Part shown: positions 2,487 to 24,980 of the stretch, piece after piece
Layout: every line of letters starts with the position of its first letter
Numbering within the stretch: position 1 is the stretch's first letter
Source: Desulfobacterales bacterium
Lineage (GTDB): Bacteria; Desulfobacterota; Desulfobacteria; Desulfobacterales; UBA5852
DNA: 24,980 nt
Direction of reading: 5' to 3'
NCBI GenBank assembly: GCA_030066135.1
Contig: JASJCD010000018.1
Span: forward strand, 1 to 24,980
The notes under the pieces: model-generated
What the model was told of the DNA's origin: nothing
Database searches by the model: none
What the model saw: only the letters and a program-made list of their open reading frames with translations
Program-made: the position numbers and the translations under genes

Positions 2487-4661
2487 ATGCAAGCCGGTCA
2501 TCATAACCTGTGGACGACAGACTGGGAGGCCTACTGGACCGATGCGGCCCAGCGTGCCGTCCTGTTCACCGACATTTTACGCAAACGCGGCAATGTCTAT
2601 CTGGAACACCTGCTCAGCGACCAACCCCCCGTGCTGGTCTTCGATTACGAAACCATCCTGGACGGCCGCGATTTCGATCCGCCGGTCAACTATGCCCTGG
2701 TGCGAATCATCGATCGGCGGCGCGAAGGGCGGCCCGTACCTGGGGGCGCTGCCGCAGAAAGGCGGCACCAGGCATCGGTTGCCGTCGAGGCCCCCGAGGC
2801 GACGCGCCGTCCGATCGTCATTTTCGATCCGCGCGCCGGGCACGGTCCGGGCATCGGCGGCTCCAAGAAGGATTCCCAGATCGGCATGGCCCTGGATGCC
2901 GGCCACCCGGTCTATTTCCTGATCTTCTTCACCCGACCCGCGCCTGACCAGACCCTGTCCGATGTGCGCAATGCCCAGATCAAATTTGTCGAGGCGGTGC
3001 GCCAACGCCACCCCAACGCTCCCCGCCCGGCCATCATCGGCAACTGCCAGGGTGGGTGGGCCGCGGCCCTCGTGGGCGCCGAGCGACCCGATCTGGTAGG
3101 TCCGATGGTGTTTAACGGCTCCCCGCTTTCCTACTGGGGGGGCGTGGAAGGGGTCAACCCCATGCGCTACCTGGGCGGCCTGATTGGCGGTGTCTGGCTC
3201 AATTCCTTGCTCAGCGATCTGGGCCACGGCTACTTCGACGGGGCCAACCTGGTGGCCAATTTCGAAAACCTCAATCCGGCCAACACGCTCTGGACCAAGC
3301 TCTACCACGTTTACGCCAATGTGGATACGGAAGAAAAACGCTTCCTGGATTTCGAGAAGTGGTGGGGCGGTTTTTTTCTCATGACCGACCGGGAGATCCA
3401 CCAGATCGTCGACGGCCTTTTCGTGGGCAACAAACTCGAGCGGGGTGAATTCGAACTCGAGGCCGGCCGCCGGGTCGATCTGAAGAACAACGACAACCCG
3501 GTGGTCGTCTTTGCTTCCTTCGGGGACAACATAACCCCGCCCCAGCAGGCCTACAACTGGATCGTCAAGACCTACGGCACGGTCGAGGAGATCAAACGCC
3601 GCGGACAGGTGATCGTGGGCATCGGGCATTCGAAAATCGGCCACCTGGGCATCTTCGTTTCCGCCAAGATCGCCCGCAAGGAGCACAAGGAGATCATCGC
3701 CAGCTTCGATATGCTCCATTACCTGCCCCCCGGTCTCTACGAAATGCAGATCGAAGAGGAACCGGATGCGCCCGGTGAATATGCCGTGCGCTACGTCGAG
3801 AAATCCATGGACGATATCCTGGCCCTCGACGACGGACTGGAGGACGAGAAGGCCTTCCTGGCCGTGCGCCAGACCTCGGAGGTCAACGACCGCCTCTACC
3901 GCAGCCTCGTATCCCCCTGGATGCGCCTGGCGGTTCCCACGGGTATGGCTGAAACCATACGCCAGCTCCACCCCCTGCGCGTCCAGCGCTACATGCTCTC
4001 CGATCTGAACCCCTGGATGATTCCCATCAGGGCCTGGGCCGACGTTATTAAAAATAACGACCGCCGCCAGCCGGTGGGCGAGGACAACATCTATCGCATC
4101 TGGGAAAAGCGCATGTCCGACACGATCGTGGACGGGCTCAACCTCTACCGCGATATGCGCGACGCGGCCTGCGAGCTGATGTTTCAGACCATCTACGAAA
4201 GCCCCTGGATGAAGATGCTCTCGGACTTCGTGGGCCCCGTAGCCCCCCGCAACGACCAAGAACTCGAGGAGATGCGCCGGCGTGATGCCGAGCGCTGGCG
4301 CCGCCACATGACCACGGGCGAGTTCGAAGACGCCGTGGTGCGGATTTTCCTGGCCATCGGCTTTTCCGACCAGGTGGTGCGCCGCAAGGGTTACAAGGTC
4401 ATCGGCCGGCTGTTTGCCGATAACCCGCGGATGAGGGCCCTGGATCTCGATGACCTGCAGCAGATTGTGCGCGAGCAGTCCCGGATCGTGCAGACCGACG
4501 TGGATCAGGCCATCGAGCATCTGCCCCGGCTGCTGCCCCGGGGAAAAGATCGTCGGGAAGCCCTGGCCATGATCGCCGAGGCCGAACGCACGATCGGACG
4601 GCCCCTGGCCCCCCAGGAAGATGCCATGATCGAGCGGGTCCGAGGCGTCCTGGCCGCGTAA
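2487..4661 (+). CDS. DUF3141-family alpha/beta-hydrolase-fold protein (PHA-synthase-like large protein)
   Basis: 724 aa. Segments characteristic of DUF3141: NCQGGWAAALVGAERPDLVGPMVFNGSPLSYWGG and WTDAAQRAVLFTDILRKRGNVYLEH near the N-terminus. Start taken at MQAGHH (2487), not the upstream ATG at 2394. Confidence 0.7.
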   Translation: MQAGHHNLWTTDWEAYWTDAAQRAVLFTDILRKRGNVYLEHLLSDQPPVLVFDYETILDGRDFDPPVNYALVRIIDRRREGRPVPGGAAAERRHQASVAVEAPEATRRPIVIFDPRAGHGPGIGGSKKDSQIGMALDAGHPVYFLIFFTRPAPDQTLSDVRNAQIKFVEAVRQRHPNAPRPAIIGNCQGGWAAALVGAERPDLVGPMVFNGSPLSYWGGVEGVNPMRYLGGLIGGVWLNSLLSDLGHGYFDGANLVANFENLNPANTLWTKLYHVYANVDTEEKRFLDFEKWWGGFFLMTDREIHQIVDGLFVGNKLERGEFELEAGRRVDLKNNDNPVVVFASFGDNITPPQQAYNWIVKTYGTVEEIKRRGQVIVGIGHSKIGHLGIFVSAKIARKEHKEIIASFDMLHYLPPGLYEMQIEEEPDAPGEYAVRYVEKSMDDILALDDGLEDEKAFLAVRQTSEVNDRLYRSLVSPWMRLAVPTGMAETIRQLHPLRVQRYMLSDLNPWMIPIRAWADVIKNNDRRQPVGEDNIYRIWEKRMSDTIVDGLNLYRDMRDAACELMFQTIYESPWMKMLSDFVGPVAPRNDQELEEMRRRDAERWRRHMTTGEFEDAVVRIFLAIGFSDQVVRRKGYKVIGRLFADNPRMRALDLDDLQQIVREQSRIVQTDVDQAIEHLPRLLPRGKDRREALAMIAEAERTIGRPLAPQEDAMIERVRGVLAA

Positions 4662-4685
4662 GCGGCCGCCCTGCGGCCTCCGGCG

Positions 4686-4714
4686 GCCGGCGGTCCGGGT
4701 TCAGCCGGCTTTTT
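4686..4714 (+). terminator. Candidate rho-independent terminator after the DUF3141 gene
   Basis: GC-rich stem GCCGG...CCGGC (5 bp, 13-nt loop) immediately followed by TTTTT (4710-4714). A longer 8-bp stem CGGCCGCC/GGCGGCCG lies just upstream (4663-4689). The DUF3141 and L,D-transpeptidase genes are convergent here. Confidence 0.35.
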
Positions 4715-4869
4715 CCATGGCGCCCGATCATCGCGGGGGCGGAGATTTCAGAGGGCCTGAAAAGGCCCGCAGGCTCACCTGGGCGCTCAGCCCTAAATCA
4801 CCTGTATTGTTCGGAGAGCGCTTCAAAACAAATCAGGGCGGAAAGCACACCGTCAGGTTTGGGGATGTA

Positions 4870-6630
4870 CTACAGGCGGCGGTCTTGCGCGTAGGATCCG
4901 GCATAGGCCGGCAGGCGCAGGGCCGTGCGGCATGCCGTCCGGGCGGCGGCACGCCGGACCAGGGTGTTGGCCAGCATGCGGTCATGCCCGTAGATGTCTT
5001 CCCGGAAGTGGTTCGTCCCGTCGGGCGCCACCCAGGCGGTCCAATAGACCAGGTAAACGGGCACGGGTTCGTCCAGAACGATCACCTGCCGCTGGTTGGA
5101 GGCCACCGCCTGGGCCAGCCGCTCCGGGTCCCAGTCCTCTCGGTCAAGCAGGATGGACACCAGCGCCAGAGGTTCTTCCACCCGCACGCAGCCGGAAGAG
5201 AATGAACGCGAAGACTTTTTGAAAAGACGCTTGGCGGGCGTATCGTGGAGGTAGACGCTCATCTCGTTGGGGAATATGAATTTGACCCGCCCCAGGGCAT
5301 TGCGGCCGGCAGGCTCCTGGCGCAGCCGATAGGGGAAGTTGCGGGCACTCACGGCCGACCAGTCAATGCTGGCAGGATTCAATTCACGGGCGCCCGGTGC
5401 CCAGCCCTCGAAGACGCGGAAATCCTGGCGGACGAGAAAATCGGGATTGGCCTGGATTTTGGGAAGTAAATCCTCGCGGGCGATCTTGTGCGGCACATAC
5501 CAGTAGGGGTTGATCTCGAGATAGGTGATCTTGCTGGCCAGAACCGGGGTGGGCCGGCCTTTGCGCCCCACGATGGTGCGCATGGTCCTGACCACCCGCC
5601 CGTTCGTGACCACCTCCATCTGGAAGCCGGGGATGTTGACCAGCAGGTAACGCGCTCCCATATGGGTCGGCATCCAGCGCCAGCGCTCCAGGCTCATCTG
5701 GATTTGAAGGATGCGGGTTTCCACGGGCACGTTCAAGGCCGCCAGGGTGCGCGCACCGGCCACGCCGTCGGCGATCAGGCCGAGGCGCCGCTGAAACCGG
5801 GCCACCGCGGCCGCGAGCGCCGCATCGTAGCAGTGGCGTCCGGATTCCAAACGGCGGCGGTAGTCGCCCGTTACGGCCAGACGCTGCTGCAACTGTTCGA
5901 CCCGCGGCCCGCAGTTCCCCGGCTTGAGCTTCGGGCCCGCCGGGATGGTGGGCCAGCCGCCTTTTCGTTGGATCATCCGGTAGCGTGGCAGGCTCTGCTG
6001 CAGGGCGCGATAGCCTTCATGCCGGGGCCCCAGTCCGACCAGGTAATCTTCCAGACGACCGCGATCCAGTGCTTCCGCCAGCCCCACGGCCAGCCGATCG
6101 ATCACGGGCCTGACCAACGGCAGGCCGAAATTGGCCATGGCCAGGTCCGTGCGCCCCGACGTGCAGTGCCAGGCGTAGCGCAACACCATTTCGGTCACGG
6201 CCAGTTCGAGCTGGATCTGCTGGCCGTCAAACGCGGCTCCCAGCGCCACCGGCCTCGAGACCCTGCCGCCCATCACTTCTTCCAGCCAGGGATTGCGGTA
6301 GTCGGCGACGTGCAGCCCCTGGTCGGCGGCCTGGTAGACCACCGCCAGGGCCATGGCCCCCTCCGGACGCAACCCGTAGCGATCCACCCAGGCCGGCTTG
6401 AAGGCGCGCACCTGGTAGAACCGCACCATGGCCGTGTCGAGCTCGATACGCGGTGCATCGCAGCGGGCCGCATCGCCGGTAACAATGGTCTGCAGTCGCT
6501 GCCGCAGTTCGTGCGCCGCTTGCACCGGCCAGTCGTCGGCTCGGGCGCCCACGCCCGGGACGGCTGAAATGACAAGCAGGACAGCCAGTGCAACGGTTGC
6601 TTTTCTCACCATCGGTTTCAATTCAGTCAT
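4870..6630 (-). CDS. L,D-transpeptidase, YcbB/LdtD-like (peptidoglycan-binding domain plus YkuD catalytic domain)
   Basis: 586 aa. N-terminal signal peptide (VALAVLLVISAVPGVGARA). Catalytic-domain motif YLHDTP...SSGCVRV near the C-terminus. Overall length and architecture fit the YcbB family. Confidence 0.85.
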   Translation of the reverse strand: MTELKPMVRKATVALAVLLVISAVPGVGARADDWPVQAAHELRQRLQTIVTGDAARCDAPRIELDTAMVRFYQVRAFKPAWVDRYGLRPEGAMALAVVYQAADQGLHVADYRNPWLEEVMGGRVSRPVALGAAFDGQQIQLELAVTEMVLRYAWHCTSGRTDLAMANFGLPLVRPVIDRLAVGLAEALDRGRLEDYLVGLGPRHEGYRALQQSLPRYRMIQRKGGWPTIPAGPKLKPGNCGPRVEQLQQRLAVTGDYRRRLESGRHCYDAALAAAVARFQRRLGLIADGVAGARTLAALNVPVETRILQIQMSLERWRWMPTHMGARYLLVNIPGFQMEVVTNGRVVRTMRTIVGRKGRPTPVLASKITYLEINPYWYVPHKIAREDLLPKIQANPDFLVRQDFRVFEGWAPGARELNPASIDWSAVSARNFPYRLRQEPAGRNALGRVKFIFPNEMSVYLHDTPAKRLFKKSSRSFSSGCVRVEEPLALVSILLDREDWDPERLAQAVASNQRQVIVLDEPVPVYLVYWTAWVAPDGTNHFREDIYGHDRMLANTLVRRAAARTACRTALRLPAYAGSYAQDRRL

Positions 6631-7206
6631 TCCATCCTCGGCACCGTTCGTCGAATCGCAAGGCGCTGTACGTTACGGGACGCACCTCACCTTTCATAAA
6701 GGCCATATCAAAAACCAGGCCAATCCCAGGATGGCCGCAACGAATTTTTATCCAGCTGAATTTATTTACTTTTGCTGCTGTTTACGCTTAAGGCGCCCGG
6801 CGGGTATGGTTCACACTGGGTCATGCATTACCCAGCTGCTGGGAAAAAAAAGAGCAAATGCAACCCGCTTGATAGCCGGATGCATCGGAATCAGGAAATG
6901 GCGAATCGTCTCTCGATCCCGTCCGGACGTCCTGTCCTCAACACGGGTGGGGTCGGCCGTAAGGGCCTCGAATATCGAGCGCACCGCCTGATTTTCAGAC
7001 CCCAGAGACACAGACCCGGTGTGACAGGGGGTTTCGGGGGTTATTGACGTGCGCTGCGTTCTCATGTGCGATTGCGGGTGCGTTGACTGAACGCCGCTCA
7101 GCTTTCAAGCGCCTGGTGGGGGACAGGTTCAATCCGGTTCCATGCGCAGGATTCACCAAGCTTGTGTTTGTGGATGAATCTGATAACATGCGGCCTTGGC
7201 GGGGCA

Positions 7207-17302: not shown

Positions 17303-17618
17303 GACCTGGCCCCACGGCAGCGGATGCACCGCCGGTCGTATCCGCTGCCATTTACGGAAACCACAACCCCGGCGGCTTTCAGCAGGCCACCTGCCGGAAG
17401 CCGCCGCTAAAAACGAGAAGCATTTTTAAGGTTGATTATCTTTCTCTGCTCTGATATCGACCCGAACAAATTTATCCGTAAGCAAAACAAGGTTCGCGTT
17501 ATGAAACCAGGATTTGAACATACATACCAGTTGGATAGAAACCGCGGCGGGAACGGCAGTGGTCTATATTCCCGCAGGCATGGCGATGGATAGCGCGAAC
17601 ACCACATAGAATTTGGTT

Positions 17619-17650
17619 GGGGCTATCGCATCGATAGCCCCTTTTGTTTT
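17619..17650 (+). terminator. Rho-independent terminator (GGGGCTATCG-CAT-CGATAGCCCC then TTTTGTTTT)
   Basis: Perfect 10-bp GC-rich stem with 3-nt loop and a U-run, seen directly. Confidence 0.7.
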
Positions 17651-17669
17651 CAGCAATCGCAGACGACAA

Positions 17670-17708
17670 AGCCGGAAGGGGTACAACGCCCCTCCGGCTT
17701 TTTGTTTA
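17670..17708 (+). terminator. Second tandem rho-independent terminator (AGCCGGAAGGGG-tacaacg-CCCCTCCGGCT then TTTTTGTTT)
   Basis: 11-12-bp stem with one bulge, followed by a T-run. Together with the terminator at 17619-17650 it closes the rtcB-SPFH transcription unit. Confidence 0.6.
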
Positions 17709-17852
17709 TGAAGTCCGCATCCGAAAAAGACTGAGACGACCCTCAGCGCCGTATGAAATGAAATGCAACAGGCATTATCGTGCGCGGTTGGATGCACCGA
17801 CTTCACTGGCGTCGCAGCTTTAACAAGAGGGTCTGGGGGATATGGTGGCCTG

Positions 17853-18176
17853 GGGGGGCTAATACAGATTTTAAGGCCTCAGGTAGCTTCCCGTATGCTT
17901 GGTCGATCTGTTGGGGTTTGCTTTTTCCCCTTTGTAGGCACCGAGGCATTGAACGGAGCAGGCCCGCGGACTGTCTGAGCGCAGCGAGTTTCCGCGGGAC
18001 CCGTTCAATGCATTGACGCGCAGGATTAAGCGGGACACGGGCGGTTTCTTTTGGTTCGTTTTCTTTAACGCTAAAGAAAATGAACTAATCAAACCCTGAA
18101 GCCATGCTACGGACCGGTAGAACCTCTTCGAAGTCTCGACCAGAGGTGCAGGGTTTGGATCAAAACAAGCCTGACT
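17853..18176 (+). repeat. Repeat family A, full copy (about 320 bp), unclassified structured element
   Basis: About 85% identical to 21521-21832. Shared blocks: GCTTGGTC-ATCTGTTG, TTTTTCCCCTTTG, GACTGTCTGAGCGNAGCGAGTTTCCGCG, GGATTAAGCGGGACACGGGCGGTTTCTTTTGGTTCGTTTTCTTT, AAAGAAAATGAAC, ACCAGAG-TG-AGGGTTT-GATCA. Contains an AU-rich extended hairpin (GGTTTCTTTTGGTTCGTTTTCTTTA-ACGC-TAAAGAAAATGAACTAATCAAACC). Overlaps the 5' end of the ORF at 18104. Confidence 0.7.
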
Positions 18177-18499
18177 ATGTTTTAAATCGATTTGATGGAA
18201 CCTGCAACTTTTCTGCAGTTGAAATGTCGAAACTTGCCACCTCATCCACGGAGGCTAATTTTTGGATTAGACGTCACTTTAACTTCAAACCTATTTTTAA
18301 GTCGGGCAGGGGGTCGGTCTTGGCGGGAAGGTTCGGTAAATACGGCGATCTCAAGCGCCGCCGGGCGCTGCAGCGGGGCCGCCGGGCAAAGGCCCGGCTG
18401 GCCGGAGCATCCACCGCGGCCCGACAAAACCGCCGGCAAGTCCTTTCCGCCGCGCACACCCCTTTGCAATCCGCTGCCCGGAAGACGCACAAGACCGCG

Positions 18500-19015
18500 G
18501 TGGTCATCATTCCCCCCGATGACCTCTGGGCCCCCATCCAGGCCCTGCGCCAGGCGTACGACCGCAATTCCCGGCGTTGGATGCCGCATATCACGCTCCT
18601 CTACCCTTTTCGGCCACGGTCCGCGTTTGGGCAGGTCGCCCCTGCACTGGCGCAGACCTGTCGTCTGATAAAGCCGTTTGAGGTGCGTCTGCAACGCTTC
18701 GATTTTTTCGTGCACGGCTCCCGCAGCGCCACCTTCTACCTGGCCCCCGAACCGGCCAGTGCGCTCAGAGCGCTGCAGCGGGGCCTGCTGGAAAAGGTGC
18801 CCGACTGCAGCGACACGGGCCGGTTTGACGGCGGGTTCATCCCCCACCTCAGCCTGGGTCAGGCGCGCAGCCGGGAGGTCGAAGCCTTGTGCCGCCGATG
18901 GCAGGCCACCTGGCGTCCCCTGGCCTTCACCCTGGAAAAGGTCCACCTGATCTGGCGCAACGATCCGCCGGACGACATCTTTCGACACGGGCCGGTGCTG
19001 CCGCTGGGTCCATAA
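18500..19015 (+). CDS. 2H phosphoesterase superfamily protein (LigT/ThpR-like RNA 2',3'-cyclic phosphodiesterase / 2'-5' RNA ligase family)
   Basis: Two H-x-T/S-x motifs (PHITLLYPF and PHLSLGQ) with LigT-like spacing. The ORF is open from 18104, but its N-terminal 130 aa are Arg-rich low-complexity sequence overlapping repeat A. The start is placed at GTG 18500 to give a LigT-sized 171-aa product. An alternative TTG at 18320 is preceded by AGGGGG. Start is uncertain. Confidence 0.6.
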   Translation: MVIIPPDDLWAPIQALRQAYDRNSRRWMPHITLLYPFRPRSAFGQVAPALAQTCRLIKPFEVRLQRFDFFVHGSRSATFYLAPEPASALRALQRGLLEKVPDCSDTGRFDGGFIPHLSLGQARSREVEALCRRWQATWRPLAFTLEKVHLIWRNDPPDDIFRHGPVLPLGP

Positions 19016-19020
19016 AAACC

Positions 19021-19271
19021 AGCTGATGTTCTCACGCCAAGCCGCTCAGCGCGACAGAAAACCTTATACCTCACGCAAAGTCGCTAAGCTCGCAAAGGAC
19101 AGCACGTTTATTTATCTTGGCCTCCGGTCAATGCAAACCATTTCAATTTCTGGATTTAATCAAATCAGAAATTGAAATATCTGTTCTTGAGTAGTGCTTT
19201 GCGCCTTTGCGCCTCCGCGTGAGATATGCTTTTTACAGTTTCCATGCGATACTTGGCGTCTTGGCGTGGGG
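19021..19271 (+). repeat. Repeat family B, copy 1 (about 250 bp structured palindromic element)
   Basis: 5' arm has two TCACGC(C)AAG-CGC-AAGC-type subrepeats. Small hairpin TTGGCC-TCC-GGTCAA (19117-19131). Long hairpin ATTTCAATTTCTGGATT-taatca-AATCAGAAATTGAAAT (19140-19179). 3' arm CTTTGCGCCTTTGCGCCTCCGCGTGAG plus CTTGGCGTCTTGGCGTGGGG is the imperfect reverse complement of the 5' arm. Starts 6 nt after the stop of the 2H gene and ends about 120 nt before the 19393 start. Confidence 0.7.
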
Positions 19272-19392
19272 CTATGCCGTTTTAAGTACCACGTGTCAGG
19301 TCGGACAAGCTTCAACCGACAAACTGTCAATGCACCGTTTAACGCATCAGCTCGCGCGAGCCTGAGCAGAATTTTGAAGGGAGTTTAGAGAG

Positions 19393-19890
19393 ATGAGAAT
19401 ACTAACCGCCATCATCGTATTGGCGTTTTGCGCCAGCGCCTATGGCAGCCAGACCGCACAGAATCCCGAGGAGGTCGGCAACGTCAACTGGGGGCGGGAT
19501 TTCGATGCGGCCCTCCAGATGAGCGCTGCCTCCGGCAAGCCCGTGCTGGTCCTGTTTCAGGAAGTTCCGGGCTGACCGGGGGTACGCGCGTTCGGCCGTG
19601 AAGTGCTGACCAACCCCCAGCTGGTAAAGGCCATCGAGGAAGAATTCATCCCGATGCTCGTCTACAACAACCGCAGCGGCGGCATGGACCGTGAACTGCT
19701 GGAGCGCTATGGCGAGCCCACCTGGAACTTTCAGGTGATCCGCTTTCTGGATGCCGAAGGAGAGGACATCATTCCCCGCAAGGACCGCGTCTGGACCACG
19801 AGCGGCGTGGCCCGGCGCATGGTCAAGACCCTCAGGGTCGTCAAACGCCCGGTGCCGGATTACCTGGAAAACCTCGCCGGAAACGAATGA
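19393..19890 (+). CDS. Periplasmic thioredoxin-fold protein (Thioredoxin_7 / DsbD-gamma-like) with in-frame TGA at 19573-19575: candidate selenoprotein, otherwise a nonsense-disrupted pseudogene
   Basis: Two track ORFs (19393-19575 and 19603-19890) are in the same frame, separated only by the TGA. The joined product is signal peptide (MRILTAIIVLAFCASAYG) + GKPVLVLFQEVPG-U-PGVRAF... + ...ELLERYGEPTWNFQVIRFLDAEGED. This aligns by eye to DsbD-gamma GKPVMLDLYADWCVACKEF...[22 protein letters not shown], with the TGA falling at the first Cys of the CxxC. RBS GAAGGGAG upstream. Confidence 0.55.
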
Positions 19891-20224
19891 CAACCCCTTC
19901 CCGAATCCGGATAGGTGCTAGAGCATATCGTCATCGGCGTCTCTTGTTTCCCCAGCGGGACGTCTACATGCACCCCCTTCCGACCGATGCTTCTGGTTCG
20001 CCTAAAAGGGTTCAAAATGATCGTAGAAGTCGGGCGTGCAAGGGGCCGGGGCATCGTCCCTGACAGGCGCGCATCGAGACCACCAGCGGTTAGGCTCAAC
20101 GAACAACCCAAAACCGTGGCAAACGCCCGGTTCCGGCTGACCTGCAAATCCTCGCAGGAATCCATTGACGGCATCCGTCAGATCAACACCGAGACCAAGG
20201 TGCCTATCAGGGACTGGTCTCTGC

Positions 20225-20431
20225 CTATTCCAGTTTAAAGGAGACTTTCAATTTGGTGCGATAGCCGACGATGCGGTTGTCCTCCAGGCGCATGTCCATT
20301 TGAACCACTTCCGCCACGCGGATGTCGCGAATGGAGCGGTCGACCGCACGCACGGCCGCCTTGGCTGCATCTTCCCAGGACTTTTCGGAAAACCCCACGA
20401 CTTCGATAACTTTGTAGACAGCATCATCCAT
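20225..20431 (-). CDS. Dodecin (small flavin-binding protein), 68 aa
   Basis: MDDAVYKVIEVVGFSEKSWEDAAKAAVRAVDRSIRDIRVAEVVQMDMRLEDNRIVGYRTKLKVSFKLE fits the dodecin family pattern (YKVIExVGxSxxSWEDA...LRDLRVAEV...YR.KLKVSF.LE). RBS GGAAAGGAG before the ATG. The track ORF 20225-21217 is an artefactual upstream extension. Confidence 0.8.
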   Translation of the reverse strand: MDDAVYKVIEVVGFSEKSWEDAAKAAVRAVDRSIRDIRVAEVVQMDMRLEDNRIVGYRTKLKVSFKLE

Positions 20432-20615
20432 GACAATCTCCTTTCCAAGTCGGATAAAGTTAATAGGAACCTGCTCTGCTTTTAAATGCTTTAAAAGGTT
20501 TGATCTGTTTTTGTGGTGAGACGAGCGACGTCGAAGAATCAATATGCGCTTTACTATAGTTAGGATCGCAAATCCCGAAATCAACATCCATGCATTCAAA
20601 TAGATAGAACGGACC

Positions 20616-21308
20616 TCAGGGACATGCAAACCTGTCGCGACCGTTGCGACGCAGCTGCGAGAAAAGCTCTCCGGCGGTAACGATCCGGGTGGCAACGGGC
20701 GTGCCGGTGGCGGCGATGGCCCTCGCCGCCCAGGTGTTGCAGGTGTTGAAGAGGTGAAAGGAACCTTGGGCGCGGTAAAAGCGGCTGGTGCCGTAGAGGC
20801 CCGGCCCCAGGGGGATGACCTCACCTTCCGGTCCGCGCGCGAAACTATCCCGGATGAAATCCAGCAGGCGCCCATAGGCGGATTGGCTGACGCATATATT
20901 AACGACCTCGCTGGCCGCAAAATAACGCGCCGGGTCCCCGGAAAAGCCCACGACGTGCATGACGCTGGCCGTGGGCCACAGGGCCGCCCGCAGGGCAAGG
21001 CCCGTTGAGGGCTCATCCGCCTGGTAGAAACGCGCATCCCCCCAGCCGATCTCGAGGTGCGCGGCACCGGAAAAATCCGCGCCAAGCAGGGGCAACCAGG
21101 ATGCCATTTCATTCTGGCCGACCACGATGCCCACGTGCCAGCCGTGCTTGACGACCTGAAATACTTTGCGTCGTTCTTCTTCGGGAGCGGTGCGCGGGGA
21201 GACCTCAGGGGCTGCACAGCCCGATGTGATGGCGATCAGCAGCGCCAGGCCGTAAAGGATACGCTTGAAATACCCCAGGCATCCGCGCTTGGTCATCTTG
21301 GTGTGCAT
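20616..21308 (-). CDS. DUF2459-like lipoprotein (TIGR02117-type conserved hypothetical)
   Basis: 230 aa. Lipoprotein signal LALLIAITSG-C. Conserved-looking blocks WHVGIVV, HLEIGWGD, and C-terminal NTCNTWAARAI. Family call is from memory, moderate confidence. Confidence 0.6.
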   Translation of the reverse strand: MHTKMTKRGCLGYFKRILYGLALLIAITSGCAAPEVSPRTAPEEERRKVFQVVKHGWHVGIVVGQNEMASWLPLLGADFSGAAHLEIGWGDARFYQADEPSTGLALRAALWPTASVMHVVGFSGDPARYFAASEVVNICVSQSAYGRLLDFIRDSFARGPEGEVIPLGPGLYGTSRFYRAQGSFHLFNTCNTWAARAIAATGTPVATRIVTAGELFSQLRRNGRDRFACP

Positions 21309-21520
21309 AGCAGCATAGTCGTCCCCGCAACCAATCTCAAAAATAATCCAAGTGCCCCTATATGCGTTATGATCCTACTCTTGGCAAAACCGTAGGGTCC
21401 CTGCCCTGCGAACCTGCATACATGTTAAATGCATGCTCCGCTTTCTCGTCGTCTCACGCCTTGCCAGGAACCCTAAGCTTAAATATGAGATAGGTTCTCT
21501 GTAAGGCTTCTTACGCAGAG

Positions 21521-21832
21521 CGGGGGGCCCCAGCTAGCCGCCCACAGGGGGCTTGGTCAATCTGTTGAGGTATAGGTTTTTCCCCTTTGTCCCGCGCCGA
21601 GCATCGACACGGCGGGCGGAATCAGCGCGCGGACTTGTCTGAGCGAAGCGAGTTTCCGCGCGCGCCGCTCGTTGGGGCGACGCACAGGATTAAGCGGGAC
21701 ACGGGCGGTTTCTTTTGGTTCGTTTTCTTTGCCGGGAAAGAAAATGAACAAACATAACAATAAAATCAGATCACGGATCGGTCCAAACTCGCTGGGTCCT
21801 CCACCAGAGATGGAGGGTTTAGATCACGACTA
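21521..21832 (+). repeat. Repeat family A, full copy 2 (about 310 bp)
   Basis: See 17853-18176. Hairpin loop differs (GCCGGG versus ACGC) with stems preserved. A distal hairpin CCTCCA-ccagaga-TGGAGG replaces CCTCT-tcgaagtctcgacc-AGAGG, keeping ACCAGAG in the loop. Lies between the DUF2459 and PEBP genes. Confidence 0.7.
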
Positions 21833-21864
21833 AACATGGGCGTCCTGTTGATGCGGCCCGGCGG

Positions 21865-22341
21865 CTACTGCCCCTTGGCATAGGTTCCCACCAGCTCCGC
21901 CCGTGCAAGAATGTGTCCCTGCATGGCCGCCTCCACCTGGGCCTTGGTGGGATTGCCCAGGCCCTCCAGGCGCGTGTCCAGGGCATAGAGCTTGTGGAAA
22001 TACCGATGGCGCCCGATCGGCGGGCAGGGCCCCCCGTAGCCGGTCCGCTGCCAGTCGTTCAATCCTTCCCCGGTGCCGGCCGGCAGATCGCGGTCCGCCA
22101 CGTCCTGCGCCAGGCCAGCATCCCCGGCCGGCAGGTTGAAGAGCACCCAGTGAACCCATGTCATCTTGGGCGCTTTGGGGTCCGGTGCGTCGGGATCGTC
22201 GACGATCAGCACCAGGCTGCGGGCATCGGCGGGCACTCCCGACCATGCCAGGGGCGGGGACACGTCCTGCCCCTCGCAGGTATACTGCTTCGGGATGGCG
22301 TCGCCGTCTTTGAAGGCCTCCGACTCGATTTTCATTGCCAT
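21865..22341 (-). CDS. YbhB/YbcL-family phosphatidylethanolamine-binding (PEBP / Raf-kinase-inhibitor-like) protein
   Basis: 158 aa from MAMKIES with RBS AAAGGAGAGG. Family blocks PPLAWSGVP, LVLIVDDPDAPDP, WVHWVLFNLPA, GYGGPCPPIGRHRYFHKLYALD. Confidence 0.85.
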   Translation of the reverse strand: MAMKIESEAFKDGDAIPKQYTCEGQDVSPPLAWSGVPADARSLVLIVDDPDAPDPKAPKMTWVHWVLFNLPAGDAGLAQDVADRDLPAGTGEGLNDWQRTGYGGPCPPIGRHRYFHKLYALDTRLEGLGNPTKAQVEAAMQGHILARAELVGTYAKGQ

Positions 22342-22908
22342 GTCGCCTCTCCTTTCGATCACGGGCCGCCCGGCAGGATCAGGCCGCCGGCCACCGCCGG
22401 GATCATGATGCTGAATTAAAGCAATATAATCATGATGACCACGCCCGGTGTATTGGCAGCCCCGACATCGACGGATGCGTCTGTCGATGGTATTCTGCGA
22501 CCTGGCCCGTCATGCATTGCCTTATCGTATCGATAATCAAAACTTTGCCCCAGATTCATTCCCGCCGCTGTTTTCCAGCTGGACAAAACGTGTCACTCCA
22601 CCTGACATATCATGTCCAGCCGTCCGCGAACCGGTCACGCCTAAAAATCCTTACCGCCTGATATCAATGTACAATCTGGACATCCACCAATACGGCACAG
22701 GATTTGCTTCAGATATAAGCGGATAAAATGAGTTAAGTCGATGATATGCACCCAACAAATCAACATGATGCATGGATATTGAAACCATATCGATATGGGG
22801 GCCACCGTGAGAAGTGCATTCGATTTTTTTGATATCGTGTCGGTCGTCATCGTTCTAACGGCCGTTCTTCGACTGAGCACCGTCAATTAGCGCAAACCAC
22901 AATCAGGG

Positions 22909-23106
22909 ATCACGCCAGACCGCAAAGCGCGACAGAAAACTTTATATTGGACGCCAAGCCGCGAAGCTCGCAAAGAAAATCAAAAGTTTTTATTTGGCCT
23001 CCGGCCAATGCAAACGGTTACCTTTTCTGGAATCGGAAGATTCAGAAAAGGTAACAATCCGTTCTTAAGCAGTTCTTTGCGCCTTTGCGACTCCGCGTGA
23101 GGAATG
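22909..23106 (+). repeat. Repeat family B, copy 2 (about 200 bp)
   Basis: TCACGCCAGACCGCAAAGCGCGACAG + GGACGCCAAGCCGCGAAGCTCGCAAAG arm. Small hairpin TTGGCC-TCC-GGCCAA (22994-23008). Long hairpin GTTACCTTTTCTGGAATC-ggaa-GATTCAGAAAAGGTAAC (23027-23055). 3' arm CTTTGCGCCTTTGCGACTCCGCGTGAGG. About 190 nt upstream of the 23295 gene. Confidence 0.7.
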
Positions 23107-23294
23107 CAGTTACCCGGCCCCGGGCCGGAGCCCCCGCCATTTCCCGGACCTTGAACCAGGATCATCATAGAGCCGCAGCCCCCGTTTTCCGGAATAAACC
23201 TGACTTGTTGACTTGACAGGTTTTTCGTCCTACACACGATATGTCTCCACGTGATGGCAACGATTGCTTATAGACCCTTTTTCTGTCAGCCGGC

Positions 23295-23675
23295 ATGAGT
23301 ATCGTATATTCCTTTGAAGACGATTATGTCCTCGTGACCCCCATTGGTTTCAATACCTTTGAAGACGTCTCCACGGCTTTCGAGATGATCGCGGCCGCCC
23401 CGGCTTCCAATCGACCCGCCAGGGTGCTTTTCGACGGGCGCCAGACCAACTACGGCCCGCCGGGTGAAGAGCTTGAAATGCTGGCCGAGTTTCTGGGAAG
23501 ACACGATGCTTACCGCGGCAGCCGTTGGGCCATCATCGCGATCCCGGATACCCTGGTGTTCGCACTCAGCCGCATGTATACCGCTCTGGCCGAAGACCAT
23601 GGCATGTACGCCGAAACCTTTACCGATTTCGAGGCCGGCCGCGCATGGCTCATGCAGCCCCAGGCCGCCCATTGA
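23295..23675 (+). CDS. Hypothetical protein, 126 aa (possible STAS/SpoIIAA-like fold; tentative)
   Basis: Clean ORF with sensible composition. No family recognised with confidence. Flanked by family B copies 2 and 3. Confidence 0.5.
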   Translation: MSIVYSFEDDYVLVTPIGFNTFEDVSTAFEMIAAAPASNRPARVLFDGRQTNYGPPGEELEMLAEFLGRHDAYRGSRWAIIAIPDTLVFALSRMYTALAEDHGMYAETFTDFEAGRAWLMQPQAAH

Positions 23676-23717
23676 GTCGATCCGTCCCCTCGCCTCCATG
23701 AGGCCGCCAAGCCTGAA

Positions 23718-24022
23718 AAGAAAGACAACTCCAAAGCTCACGCCAAGCCGCAAAGCTCGCAATGGAAAGCTATTGGTTTTAGTTCCTCGGTCGCAGACCG
23801 ATGCAAGCCGTTACCTTTTCTGGAATCCAAAGGATTCAGAAAAGGTAACTATCTGTTCTTAGGCAGTTCTTTGCGCCTTTGCGTCTTTGCGTGAGGCATG
23901 CTGTTAGCAGTTTCAACTTGGTCCCTGGAGCATTAGCGTCTGTCGTCTCCGCGTGAGATATGCTTCTCGCAGTTACTATGCAGTTCGCGGTGTATTCGCG
24001 TGAGGTAAGGGAAGGTAAAGGC
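23718..24022 (+). repeat. Repeat family B, copy 3 (about 300 bp)
   Basis: GAAAGACAACTCCAAAGCTCACGCCAAGCCGCAAAGCTCGCAA arm. Small hairpin TCGGTC-GCA-GACCGA (23787-23801), a different sequence giving the same structure. Long hairpin GTTACCTTTTCTGGAATCC-aaa-GGATTCAGAAAAGGTAAC (23810-23849). 3' arm has three GCGTGAG subrepeats and ends GTGAGGTAAGGGAAGG. Starts 43 nt after the 23675 stop and ends at the stop of the convergent 24043 gene. Confidence 0.7.
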
Positions 24023-24042
24023 AGCGCCGGACCTCGCTGGCA

Positions 24043-24474
24043 TCATCCGCCGGGCTTGCCGGCCATGATAGCATCCTTGATCATGGCATCGAGCCTGTCC
24101 ATCATTTTGTGTTTGAAGCCCAGCCGCTTGGCATCGGCGAGATAGGCCCCCGCCTTGTCGGGGTCGTTTCGAAAGCGCATATGCACCACGGCCAGATCCC
24201 AGTAGGGCGCGGCAAGGTAGGGGTCGAGAGCAATGGCTTCCTCGAAAAGCGCGCACATCGTATCGATCTGCTCCGGTGATGGCGCAATGCCGGCCTGGTC
24301 GCAAGCCGTCATGATGGCCTCCCCTTTGCCTCCACGCGCCCTGGCGGCCCGCAGCTTCAAGTCAGGATTGTCGGGATCCTTCTCCCGGAACCGGTCCACA
24401 TAGGCAATCGCATCGTCCTGGCGCCCGGCCTTGAGCATTTCCGCATATTCAAGCTTATCGAATTCTTCGCCCAT
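24043..24474 (-). CDS. Hypothetical protein, 143 aa (helical, possibly TPR-like)
   Basis: ORF with RBS GGAAAGGTAAGT before the ATG. Lys/Asp-rich helical composition. No family recognised. Confidence 0.5.
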   Translation of the reverse strand: MGEEFDKLEYAEMLKAGRQDDAIAYVDRFREKDPDNPDLKLRAARARGGKGEAIMTACDQAGIAPSPEQIDTMCALFEEAIALDPYLAAPYWDLAVVHMRFRNDPDKAGAYLADAKRLGFKHKMMDRLDAMIKDAIMAGKPGG

Positions 24475-24513
24475 ACTTACCTTTCCATATCTTCGATTAA
24501 CTGACAGCTAACA

Positions 24514-24835
24514 GAGAAAGACAACTTCAGGTTTCACGCCAAGCCGCAAAGCACGCCAGAAAAGCAACAACATTTCTCACGCAAAGCCGCCAAGCCCGCA
24601 AAAAAAACCAATATGTTATCTTTCGGCCTTCGGCCGAAGCATCCCGTTACCTTTTCTGGAATCCAACGGATTCAGAAAAGGTAACAATCTGTTCGCAGCC
24701 GTTCTTTGCGCCTTAGCGTCTTTGCGTGACAAATATGGCCGTTAATGCTTTATCTGCGTTCATCTGTGTCAATCTGCGGCCAACTAATCTGTTCTTGTGC
24801 CTCAGCATCATGGCGTGAGGCAAGGGAAAAAAAAG
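24514..24835 (+). repeat. Repeat family B, copy 4 (about 320 bp)
   Basis: AGAGAAAGACAACTTCAGGTTTCACGCCAAGCCGCAAAGCACGCC + TCACGCAAAGCCGCCAAGCCCGCAAAAAAAA arm. Small hairpin TTCGGCC-TTC-GGCCGAA (24622-24638). Long hairpin GTTACCTTTTCTGGAATCC-aac-GGATTCAGAAAAGGTAAC (24646-24685). 3' arm CTTTGCGCCTTAGCGTCTTTGCGTGAC ... CATGGCGTGAGGCAAGGGAAAAAAAAGGGG. About 40 nt upstream of the divergent start of the 24474 gene. Confidence 0.7.
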
Positions 24836-24980
24836 GGGATTGAAATGGAAACCTGAGCGCGTCCGCTTGCCCAGGGCAGCCCATCCCCTCATCTCTTAGG
24901 CCGAATTCCGGCTGGCATTGATATTACCATACAGCGACCGCTGGACGATTTTTTCGTAAAGCGGTTGATGTTTCGTGCCC

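Follow-up and report, generated by a model that had tools for sequence, protein, structure and literature searches.

Structured extragenic repeats and variable gene content in a gene-poor region of a Desulfobacterales contig

The last 7181 nt (positions 17800-24980) of a 24,980-bp contig from a Desulfobacterales metagenome-assembled genome raise the question of how a set of small genes comes to stand scattered among structured repeats. The whole contig was analysed and is called the window here. A first-pass annotation had seen in this region an accessory island assembled by its repeats through site-specific or homologous recombination, or else a regulon whose members share repeat-derived leaders. 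It counted six copies of two repeat families filling about a quarter of the sequence, and this count stands: two copies of repeat A and four of repeat B sum to 1738 nt, 24% of the region. The coding fraction is 45%, and the spacers have a GC content of 40-58%.

We consider it likely that the region is native chromosome of low coding density that is prone to rearrangement, with spacers holding at least three repeat families (A, B and C), and that B derives from GxxExxY units, lacks a gene of its own and recombines the locus. The region is genuinely variable and decaying, and its breakpoints coincide with repeats. Both A and B are extragenic repeats that are structured, dispersed and consistent in strand; in the window all of their copies lie on the + strand, whichever way the genes run. 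The genome and metagenome scans described below were exact-match searches, and the comparison contigs, identified by L numbers, are metagenomic.

Structure and distribution of the B element

B is an extragenic element of 160-300 nt with no open reading frame (ORF) inside it. The four window copies align over ~160 nt, with a core of 158 nt:

B1, 19032-19270 (core 19069-19225), + strand, starting 17 nt past the stop codon of the 2H phosphoesterase gene
B2, 22910-23150 (core 22947-23103), + strand
B3, 23699-24010 (core 23736-23897), + strand, with extra right-arm repeats, between the convergent genes orphan126 and TPR143
B4, 24503-24800 (core 24575-24732), + strand, with a tail module TTATCTGCGTTCATCTGTGTCAATCTGCGG at 24752-24781

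The element folds into three helices, with folding z-scores of -4.5 and -5.1. P1 is a ~24-bp stem with regular bulges, formed by inverted arms that each consist of three tandem 8-9-mers, (CGCAAAGN)x3; the arm TCACGCAAAG-nCGCAAAG-nnCGCAAAG pairs with its own complement. P2 is a GGCC-loop-GGCC hairpin, and P3 is an AU-rich hairpin of 17 bp in which one G is bulged, GTTACCTTTTCTG(G)AATCC...GGATTCAGAAAAGGTAAC. The 26-nt arm pattern has four matches in the window versus none in 100 shuffles.

A covariance model was built from the four window copies and identified 43 strong copies, which score 70-173 bits on the forward strand versus 30-48 bits on the reverse. Among these, pairing holds in 94.6% of cells, and both sides have changed in 15 of 47 pairs; these counts lean towards structure because they rest on an alignment fitted to the model. 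None of 500 shuffles reached any of the observed values, and when the partners were slid by 1-3 columns pairing fell to 31-46%. Covariation is seen in 8 of the 17 pairs of P3, and its bulged G is present in all 43 copies. Since B has 67 G-U pairs on the forward strand versus 29 A-C pairs, folding from the forward strand is modestly favoured.

The tail of B4 represents a second type of tandem short repeat, which occurs as a regular 3' module after many B copies (L125-L146). A similar motif, CAGATGAACGCAGATGAAC, is present in a Stigonema locus (L100).

The complete B element is lineage-restricted, since a scan of metagenomes for the P3 hairpin returned 22 contigs only, all from one assembly group. 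Related metagenome contigs contain at least 43 B copies in ~27 site clusters, and no contig with more than one copy has them on both strands. The left end of B was found 5-64 nt past the stop codon of a co-oriented gene (nine cases), and the genes adjoining B are mostly co-oriented with it. Elsewhere in the lineage the neighbours include genes for GxxExxY, AbiEii, MNT/HepT toxin-antitoxin, Fic, group II intron reverse transcriptase and ParA proteins, together with a putative HigA-like protein, assigned by reading its sequence and not by a Pfam match. Ordinary genes, such as those for a histidine kinase and an aldo-keto reductase, also adjoin B. In one contig (L132, 539-1960) a gene for a group II intron reverse transcriptase/maturase directly adjoins a B copy. 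Copies cluster in gene-poor, variable stretches; they do not form the uniform scatter, free of any association with accessory genes, that the first-pass annotation had considered as a contrary outcome.

A B copy at the B3 position was found in all relatives examined, and L162 carries a tandem array of four whole B elements (5895-6801). The orthologues of B3 in L131 and L144, which are close relatives, reach 84-86% identity to it. For the copy at the corresponding position, identity is 62% in L148 and 65% in L147, both more distant relatives, and 78% in L162; the identity of the adjacent TPR143 at third codon positions is 0.82, 0.75 and 0.80, respectively. Within the window, B1, B2 and B4 are 70-79% identical to B3, which is above the values for the L148 and L147 orthologues and similar to that for L162. 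Because these paralogues are closer to B3 than are the L148 and L147 orthologues, B copies appear to undergo concerted evolution or turnover.

The B arms and the GxxExxY genes

The arms of B are common to GxxExxY units. GTDB genomes contain at least 120 stretches that match the 26-nt right arm, CTTTGCGnCTTwGCGnCTyyGCGTGA, exactly; they belong to ten or more phyla (Cyanobacteria, Acidobacteriota, Verrucomicrobiota, Planctomycetota, Bacteroidota, Desulfobacterota, Chloroflexota, Gemmatimonadota, Proteobacteria and Spirochaetota). These pan-bacterial loci share with B the arm only, and not P2 or P3. Among the matches listed, an inverted partner lies 16-172 nt upstream in 39% of occurrences, and GxxExxY/PDDEXK_3 is the only family that recurs among arm-adjacent ORFs (9 loci). 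The motif is rarer inside ORFs and enriched just past stop codons. In the cyanobacterium Dolichospermum (L036, 5510-5940) it forms a six-copy tandem array with a period of 81 nt.

The association was also seen from the side of the gene. Flanking short repeats surround 8 of 8 plasmid- or chromid-borne GxxExxY genes from six phyla; tandem 7-9-mers are clear in six of the eight plasmid-borne flanks, and the flanks are inverted in four. In Gemmatirosa, Bernardetia and Bacteroides they are inverted arms of tandem 8-9-mers, the Treponema gene has one inverted repeat, and in Sphingomonas an upstream arm, TTCACGCGAAGGCGCGAGGACGCGAAG, stands immediately before the ATG. In Persicobacter and Prevotella the short motifs are tandem and direct, and the plasmid gene from Fusobacteria has direct repeats of ~50 nt. 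The plasmid and chromid genes are wedged among co-oriented housekeeping genes, for example fabD and fabG. In Bacteroides, Bernardetia, Nostoc (L022) and other cases the unit consists of a small ORF within terminal inverted repeats. The lineage of the window has five GxxExxY genes, each arranged as B-gene-B, co-oriented and with fixed junction sequences.

PDDEXK_3 has been listed as a family of unknown function with multiple transfers (PMC3424549), and this table entry was all that literature searches on GxxExxY/PF13366 returned. For GxxExxY, PADLOC gave a faint Cas4-like similarity only. Literature searches yielded no paper describing the arm motif, and a search on short tandemly repeated repetitive (STRR) sequences gave nothing relevant.

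Among known systems, B recalls the repetitive extragenic palindromic (REP) sequences, bacterial interspersed mosaic elements (BIMEs) and REP-derived REPINs that are mobilised by REP-associated tyrosine transposases (RAYTs) of the Y1 HUH type (PMC3116915, PMC3337134). Like these, B is extragenic, hairpin-forming, multi-copy, vertically persistent and homogenised within a genome; it often lies just past gene ends, is associated with assembly breaks and acts as a recombination substrate. Unlike REP, a palindrome of 20-40 nt, B extends over 160-300 nt with three helices. The conserved 5' GTAG motif of REP was not observed in B, and no RAYT flanked by B was found, the B-associated gene being a member of the PD-(D/E)XK family. 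The only Y1_Tnp gene seen (L147, 4672-5695) was rejected as a RAYT link: it is bounded by 37-nt terminal inverted repeats of its own and not by B, the nearest copy being more than 1.3 kb away. This gene is frameshifted, lies in an insertion sequence-like unit (4613-5706) within the L147 counterpart of the neighbourhood and encodes a protein with a DnaA_C-like helix-turn-helix domain.

The Correia elements of Neisseria are ~100-155 bp long, have terminal inverted repeats and are co-transcribed, with a stem that is cleaved by RNase III. With these and other miniature inverted-repeat transposable elements (MITEs), B shares a small size, an intergenic position, the lack of coding sequence and terminal inverted repeats able to form a long RNA stem. 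Like them it is dispersed, varies from strain to strain and can separate or rewire the genes beside it. Its arms, TCACGCAAAG... and ...CTTTGCGTGA, give the 24-bp P1 stem with no ORF, and it is multi-copy. Unlike MITEs, B has no identified target-site duplication or parent transposase, keeps a uniform orientation per contig and has arms of tandem 8-9-mers that are common to many phyla. GxxExxY genes share these arms, and in the literature found no transposase activity is known for PDDEXK_3.

A third likeness is to the intervening sequences (IVSs) of 23S rRNA, in which a small ORF of the S23p four-helix-bundle family lies between inverted repeats (PMC4990558). IVSs and GxxExxY/B units have in common an ORF within terminal inverted repeats of ~24-28 bp with a bulge or mismatch, a sporadic distribution suggestive of horizontal gene transfer and tolerance inside transcription units. 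GxxExxY units combine a small ORF with terminal inverted repeats that would form a ~25-bp stem, and B corresponds to the stem without the ORF; P1 may be an RNase III-type stem like those of rRNA IVSs (PMC4990558). Unlike IVSs, these units lie between protein genes and not in rRNA, and their cargo is a GxxExxY nuclease or, for B, nothing. On the likeliest reading, B is a gene-less element of MITE-, REP- or Correia-like type, derived from the units in which inverted repeats stand on either side of GxxExxY genes in many phyla.

Variation of the locus and its other features

Recombination between B copies alters gene content. Contig L131 lacks exactly 777 nt of the window (22943-23720), comprising the B2 core and orphan126, and has a hybrid B in which the left arm of B2 is joined to B3, with the junction within homologous arm sequence. 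This is what would be expected of an unequal crossover between the direct repeats B2 and B3. The first-pass annotation had tied the repeats to structural variation, a link that is borne out by this deletion and, as described below, by a variable slot between PEBP and TPR143 and by the presence or absence of A2. The features concerned, other than B, are as follows:

A0, 584-720, + strand, partial A copy (M2 hairpin and tail), outside the region, after an Fe-S protein gene
A1, 17866-18180, + strand, modular structured repeat of ~315 nt (M1, M2 and 3' tail)
2H phosphoesterase gene (2'-5' RNA ligase superfamily; 2_5_RNA_ligase2), ORF 18104-19015, + strand, Pfam domain at residues 137-287 (~18512-18964)
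SecTrx, 19393-19890, + strand, secreted thioredoxin-fold protein (Thioredoxin_7, Pfam), with an in-frame TGA at 19573-19575
Deletion scar, 19891-20224, no strand, where relatives carry ~2.2 kb (p131, p125, MscS)
Dodecin gene, 20225-20431, - strand (Pfam)
DUF2459 lipoprotein gene, 20616-21308, - strand (Pfam), directly after PEBP in relatives
C, 21318-21520, no strand, third dispersed repeat, with copies in L135, L141, L162 (two) and L163
A2, 21518-21850, + strand, between PEBP and DUF2459 and antisense to both
PEBP gene (YbhB/YbcL-type), 21865-22341, - strand (Pfam)
AT-rich stretch without an ORF, 22400-22915, no strand, 47% GC
orphan126, 23295-23675, + strand, 126-aa protein without a Pfam match, with B2 and B3 on its flanks
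TPR143, 24043-24474, - strand, TPR-like 143-aa protein, with ~88% amino-acid identity in relatives (88.5% to TPR142 of L148)

The genes of the region are indeed small, as first annotated, and they number seven (from the ORF listing and Pfam) and not eight; the candidate eighth gene, an ORF at 19915-20238, was placed in the deletion scar. The repeats do lie within the region, and the first pass had missed the partial A copy outside it as well as the third repeat, C.

The backbone TPR143...PEBP-DUF2459-dodecin...SecTrx is syntenic in L131, L144, L147-152 and L162, and individual units alone vary. In L148-152 (~80% nucleotide identity) the order is TPR866, an orphan126-like remnant, B, TPR142, B and an Old Yellow Enzyme (OYE) gene, continuing with PEBP, DUF2459 directly after it, dodecin, p131, p125, MscS, SecTrx and an aldehyde dehydrogenase gene. 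Compared with this order, we infer that the window has lost OYE, has lost p131, p125 and MscS, and has gained C and A2 between PEBP and DUF2459, the direction of each event being the inferred part. The window has Band7-A1-2H-B1 where L148-152 have the aldehyde dehydrogenase gene, and the B1 site is a synteny breakpoint because the relatives have this gene instead of 2H. A2 is not present in L131, L144 or L148-152. In relatives PEBP and DUF2459 form a tight gene pair, which A2 splits in the window, and the earlier statement that none of the genes forms an operon is therefore not strictly true. A syntenic, invariant locus without repeats, which would have spoken against the first-pass annotation, is half of what was seen: the backbone is syntenic but not invariant, and repeats are present in the relatives.

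The content of the slot between PEBP and TPR143 differs among relatives, being an OYE gene, an ABC/MacB/LysR block or B-orphan126-B; in L162 a 6-kb ABC/MacB/LysR block occurs there with the four-copy B array. The orphan126 gene lies between two B copies in the window and L144. In L162-164 its neighbours are LysR and a globin gene, and no B is close by. Both A2 and orphan126 with B vary in presence between relatives, at junctions without duplication that fit recombination. Within the deletion scar, 14 residues of the MscS C-terminus survive (19947-19988), and the SecTrx 3' end is repeated at 20120-20169 in a copy that is 82% identical to the last 50 nt of the gene. L144 lacks 19891-20120, a clean deletion between two D10 direct repeats. 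Contigs 99% identical to the window (L121-123) stop at 17512-17688, and L124 has contig ends at ~20101 (next to a D10 repeat) and ~21647 (at A2); such ends fit graph breaks at repeats or strain-variable sequence.

The A core pattern (25-26 nt) has three matches in the window versus none in 100 shuffles, and A1 and A2 are 76% identical over ~280 nt, with folding z-scores of -4.0 and -3.5. Module M1 is a two-tier hairpin whose 18-nt loop, TGTnTGAGCGnAGCnAG, is conserved and whose stem pairs show compensatory changes in 9 of 23 cases among four copies only; M2 is a perfect AU-rich hairpin, GGTTCGTTTTCTTT...AAAGAAAATGAAC. The spacer between RtcB and Band7 is fully replaced between strains that are 98-99.6% identical in these two genes: L122 (1393-1649) has M1, L138 (845-968) has M2 and the tail, and the window (16077-16181) has a tail remnant only. 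No target-site duplications were recognisable at A2 or at this spacer, the spacers being simply replaced. A1 had no match in plasmids (blastn, distant mode), and the A core had none in viral contigs. Upstream of DUF2459 there is a single sigma-70-like match, a weak one, and it lies within C (21340-21312, minus strand).

Upstream of the region lie RtcR, a tRNA-like gene, RtcB and a slipin/Band7 gene. The tRNA-like gene (14404-14476, + strand) sits between the divergent RtcR and RtcB, and its anticodon loop is non-canonical (CGAUUAA, with G at position 33 and anticodon AUU); it may serve the Rtc RNA-repair system as a decoy or sensor RNA. A whole-window run of Rfam at gathering score gave no matches and so overlooked this gene, which a later run with an E-value threshold scored at 43.9 bits on the tRNA model. 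For the flagged region we therefore relied on the run at E<=1, which returned nothing but chance microRNA matches on the P3 hairpin.

The 2H ORF begins inside A1, and its true start is probably much later, with the N-terminal extension not translated, because the first ~130 residues (18104-18500) carry no domain. The gene may be functionally grouped with the upstream RtcR/RtcB RNA-repair genes. In SecTrx the TGA lies in the motif ...EVPG-U-PGV..., and its conservation together with the reading frame in eight relatives (81-94% nucleotide identity) supports a predicted selenocysteine codon; Rfam gave no selenocysteine insertion sequence (SECIS) match for this gene. The AT-rich stretch at 22400-22915 is conserved (98% in L131, 82% in L144, 72% in L139), its position is occupied by the OYE gene or the ABC/LysR block in more distant relatives, and no OYE remnants were found in it. 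It may be an unannotated small gene, a small RNA or a regulatory region upstream of PEBP. The orphan126 protein is lineage-restricted, with 8 clusters only among 5.8 billion proteins, and showed no BLASTP similarity to a SpoIIAA-like neighbour of B in L134. Exact-protein look-ups gave no record for TPR143, orphan126 or DUF2459.

Weighing the explanations

How might B reshape the locus? B copies lie just downstream of co-oriented genes and are probably co-transcribed with the upstream gene, and gene conversion or turnover would keep them similar within a genome. Being direct repeats, they would act as substrates for unequal homologous recombination, which would delete, insert and reorder the small genes between them. 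GxxExxY or another enzyme may maintain or move B copies in trans.

Several observations weigh against this account. No target-site duplication or clean empty site was found, so transposition is not demonstrated, and all of the observed variation can be explained by recombination alone. The window contains no GxxExxY gene or remnant. Among the matches listed, ~55% of pan-bacterial arm motifs stand alone and just 9 of 120 arm loci have a GxxExxY gene. The order of the arms also differs by lineage: in some the left arm precedes the gene and the right arm follows it, and here the order is reversed. GxxExxY has no relative with a solved structure in the PDB and no known activity in the literature found. 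The covariation counts carry the lean noted above, and some of the metagenomic comparison contigs may be strain chimeras.

A bolder proposal would place B and GxxExxY genes in one undescribed, pan-bacterial class of nuclease-associated mobile units. The tandem-nonamer arms would be nuclease recognition sites, gene-less B would be mobilised or homogenised in trans, and the genes between B copies would be exchangeable cassettes, shuffled in an integron-like way without an integrase. We regard this extension as rather unlikely.

It is also rather unlikely that A and B are not selfish and benefit the host as RNA elements, serving as 3'-end stabilisers of mRNA, RNase III/E sites or operon insulators, as has been proposed for REP/BIME, and spreading by selection. 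The placement of B 5-64 nt past co-oriented stops among mostly co-oriented neighbours would agree with this, as would the excess of G-U over A-C pairs on the forward strand, a structure that is kept while sequence drifts, and the persistence of B at the B3 position in all relatives. However, B has no terminator-like U tract, and a scan for promoters and terminators gave counts no higher than chance, with B not terminator-like. Some copies are antisense to or upstream of their neighbours, tandem arrays exist, the arms are common with horizontally transferred GxxExxY units, and A2 looks disruptive, as it splits an ancestral gene pair.

The idea of an acquired island or integron-like cassette array, with B copies as sites for a recombinase encoded elsewhere and the small genes as mobile cassettes, now seems very doubtful. 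Like integrons and clusters of attC sites lacking integron-integrases (CALINs), B forms same-strand arrays of imperfect palindromes that separate small accessory genes, among them toxin-antitoxin, Abi, Fic and GxxExxY genes. Some relatives have a unit made up of one B and orphan126 that others lack, the place of orphan126 changes from relative to relative, and the invariant extrahelical G of P3 resembles the extrahelical bases of attC. Co-oriented cassettes with a single small ORF do occur in L125, L128, L142 and L143. Unlike integrons, B lacks the attC signature: a search for RYYYAAC...GTTRRRY (55-140 nt palindrome) gave 0 matches in the window versus a mean of 2.9 in shuffles, and P3 reads 5'-GTT...AAC-3', the reverse of attC polarity. 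In agreement with the first-pass annotation, the window contains no integrase or transposase, and there is no integrase in ~170 kb of related contigs. Gene orientations are mixed in the window, and the genes between B copies, in both orientations, include large ones such as that for a 677-aa histidine kinase. The L131 junction lies in homologous arm sequence, as homologous recombination would give, and neither this nor the missing recombinase and attC signature favours site-specific recombination. Nor is the region foreign, because the GC content at third codon positions is native (0.68-0.83 for the seven genes versus 0.75-0.88 for nine upstream genes), the backbone is syntenic at ~80% identity, and mobility genes and att/attC signatures are lacking. 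It is not absent as a block from relatives, and tRNA or att boundaries are missing, the only tRNA-like gene lying ~3.4 kb before it.

It is highly improbable that A and B are shared cis-regulatory leader RNAs (riboswitches or binding sites for small RNAs) of a regulon of redox, RNA-end and stress genes. Both repeats are strongly structured with covariation, and B1 and B2 lie 170-190 nt upstream of SecTrx and orphan126. Against this, B begins 17-24 nt past upstream stop codons, B3 lies between convergent genes, and B4 and A2 are antisense to their neighbours. Elsewhere B adjoins unrelated genes (toxin-antitoxin, group II intron reverse transcriptase, histidine kinase, aldo-keto reductase), relatives without A2 keep the same genes, and there is no Rfam match. 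Finally, a layout created by repeats in a chimeric assembly can be given next to no weight, for although near-identical short-read contigs break here (L121-123, L124), independent assemblies repeat the adjacencies Band7-A1-2H-B1 (L138), 2H-B1-SecTrx (L133), SecTrx-dodecin-DUF2459-PEBP-B-orphan126-B-TPR143-B (L144) and TPR143-B-AT patch-PEBP (L131).

The reading of the region as native, rearrangement-prone chromosome, with B as a gene-less GxxExxY-unit derivative, explains the gene-poor stretch, the fragmentation of short-read assemblies and the differences between near-identical strains. It provides a concrete case of small structured repeats reshaping a bacterial locus, in which a gene pair is split, genes are deleted or moved and synteny breakpoints are marked. 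A lineage-specific repeat is linked to an arm motif that is identical in at least ten phyla and to GxxExxY, a widespread PD-(D/E)XK family. This link yields a testable hypothesis, namely that GxxExxY acts on the tandem-nonamer arms. Moreover, because the arm motif produces many spurious "hypothetical protein" ORFs, its recognition would improve annotation.

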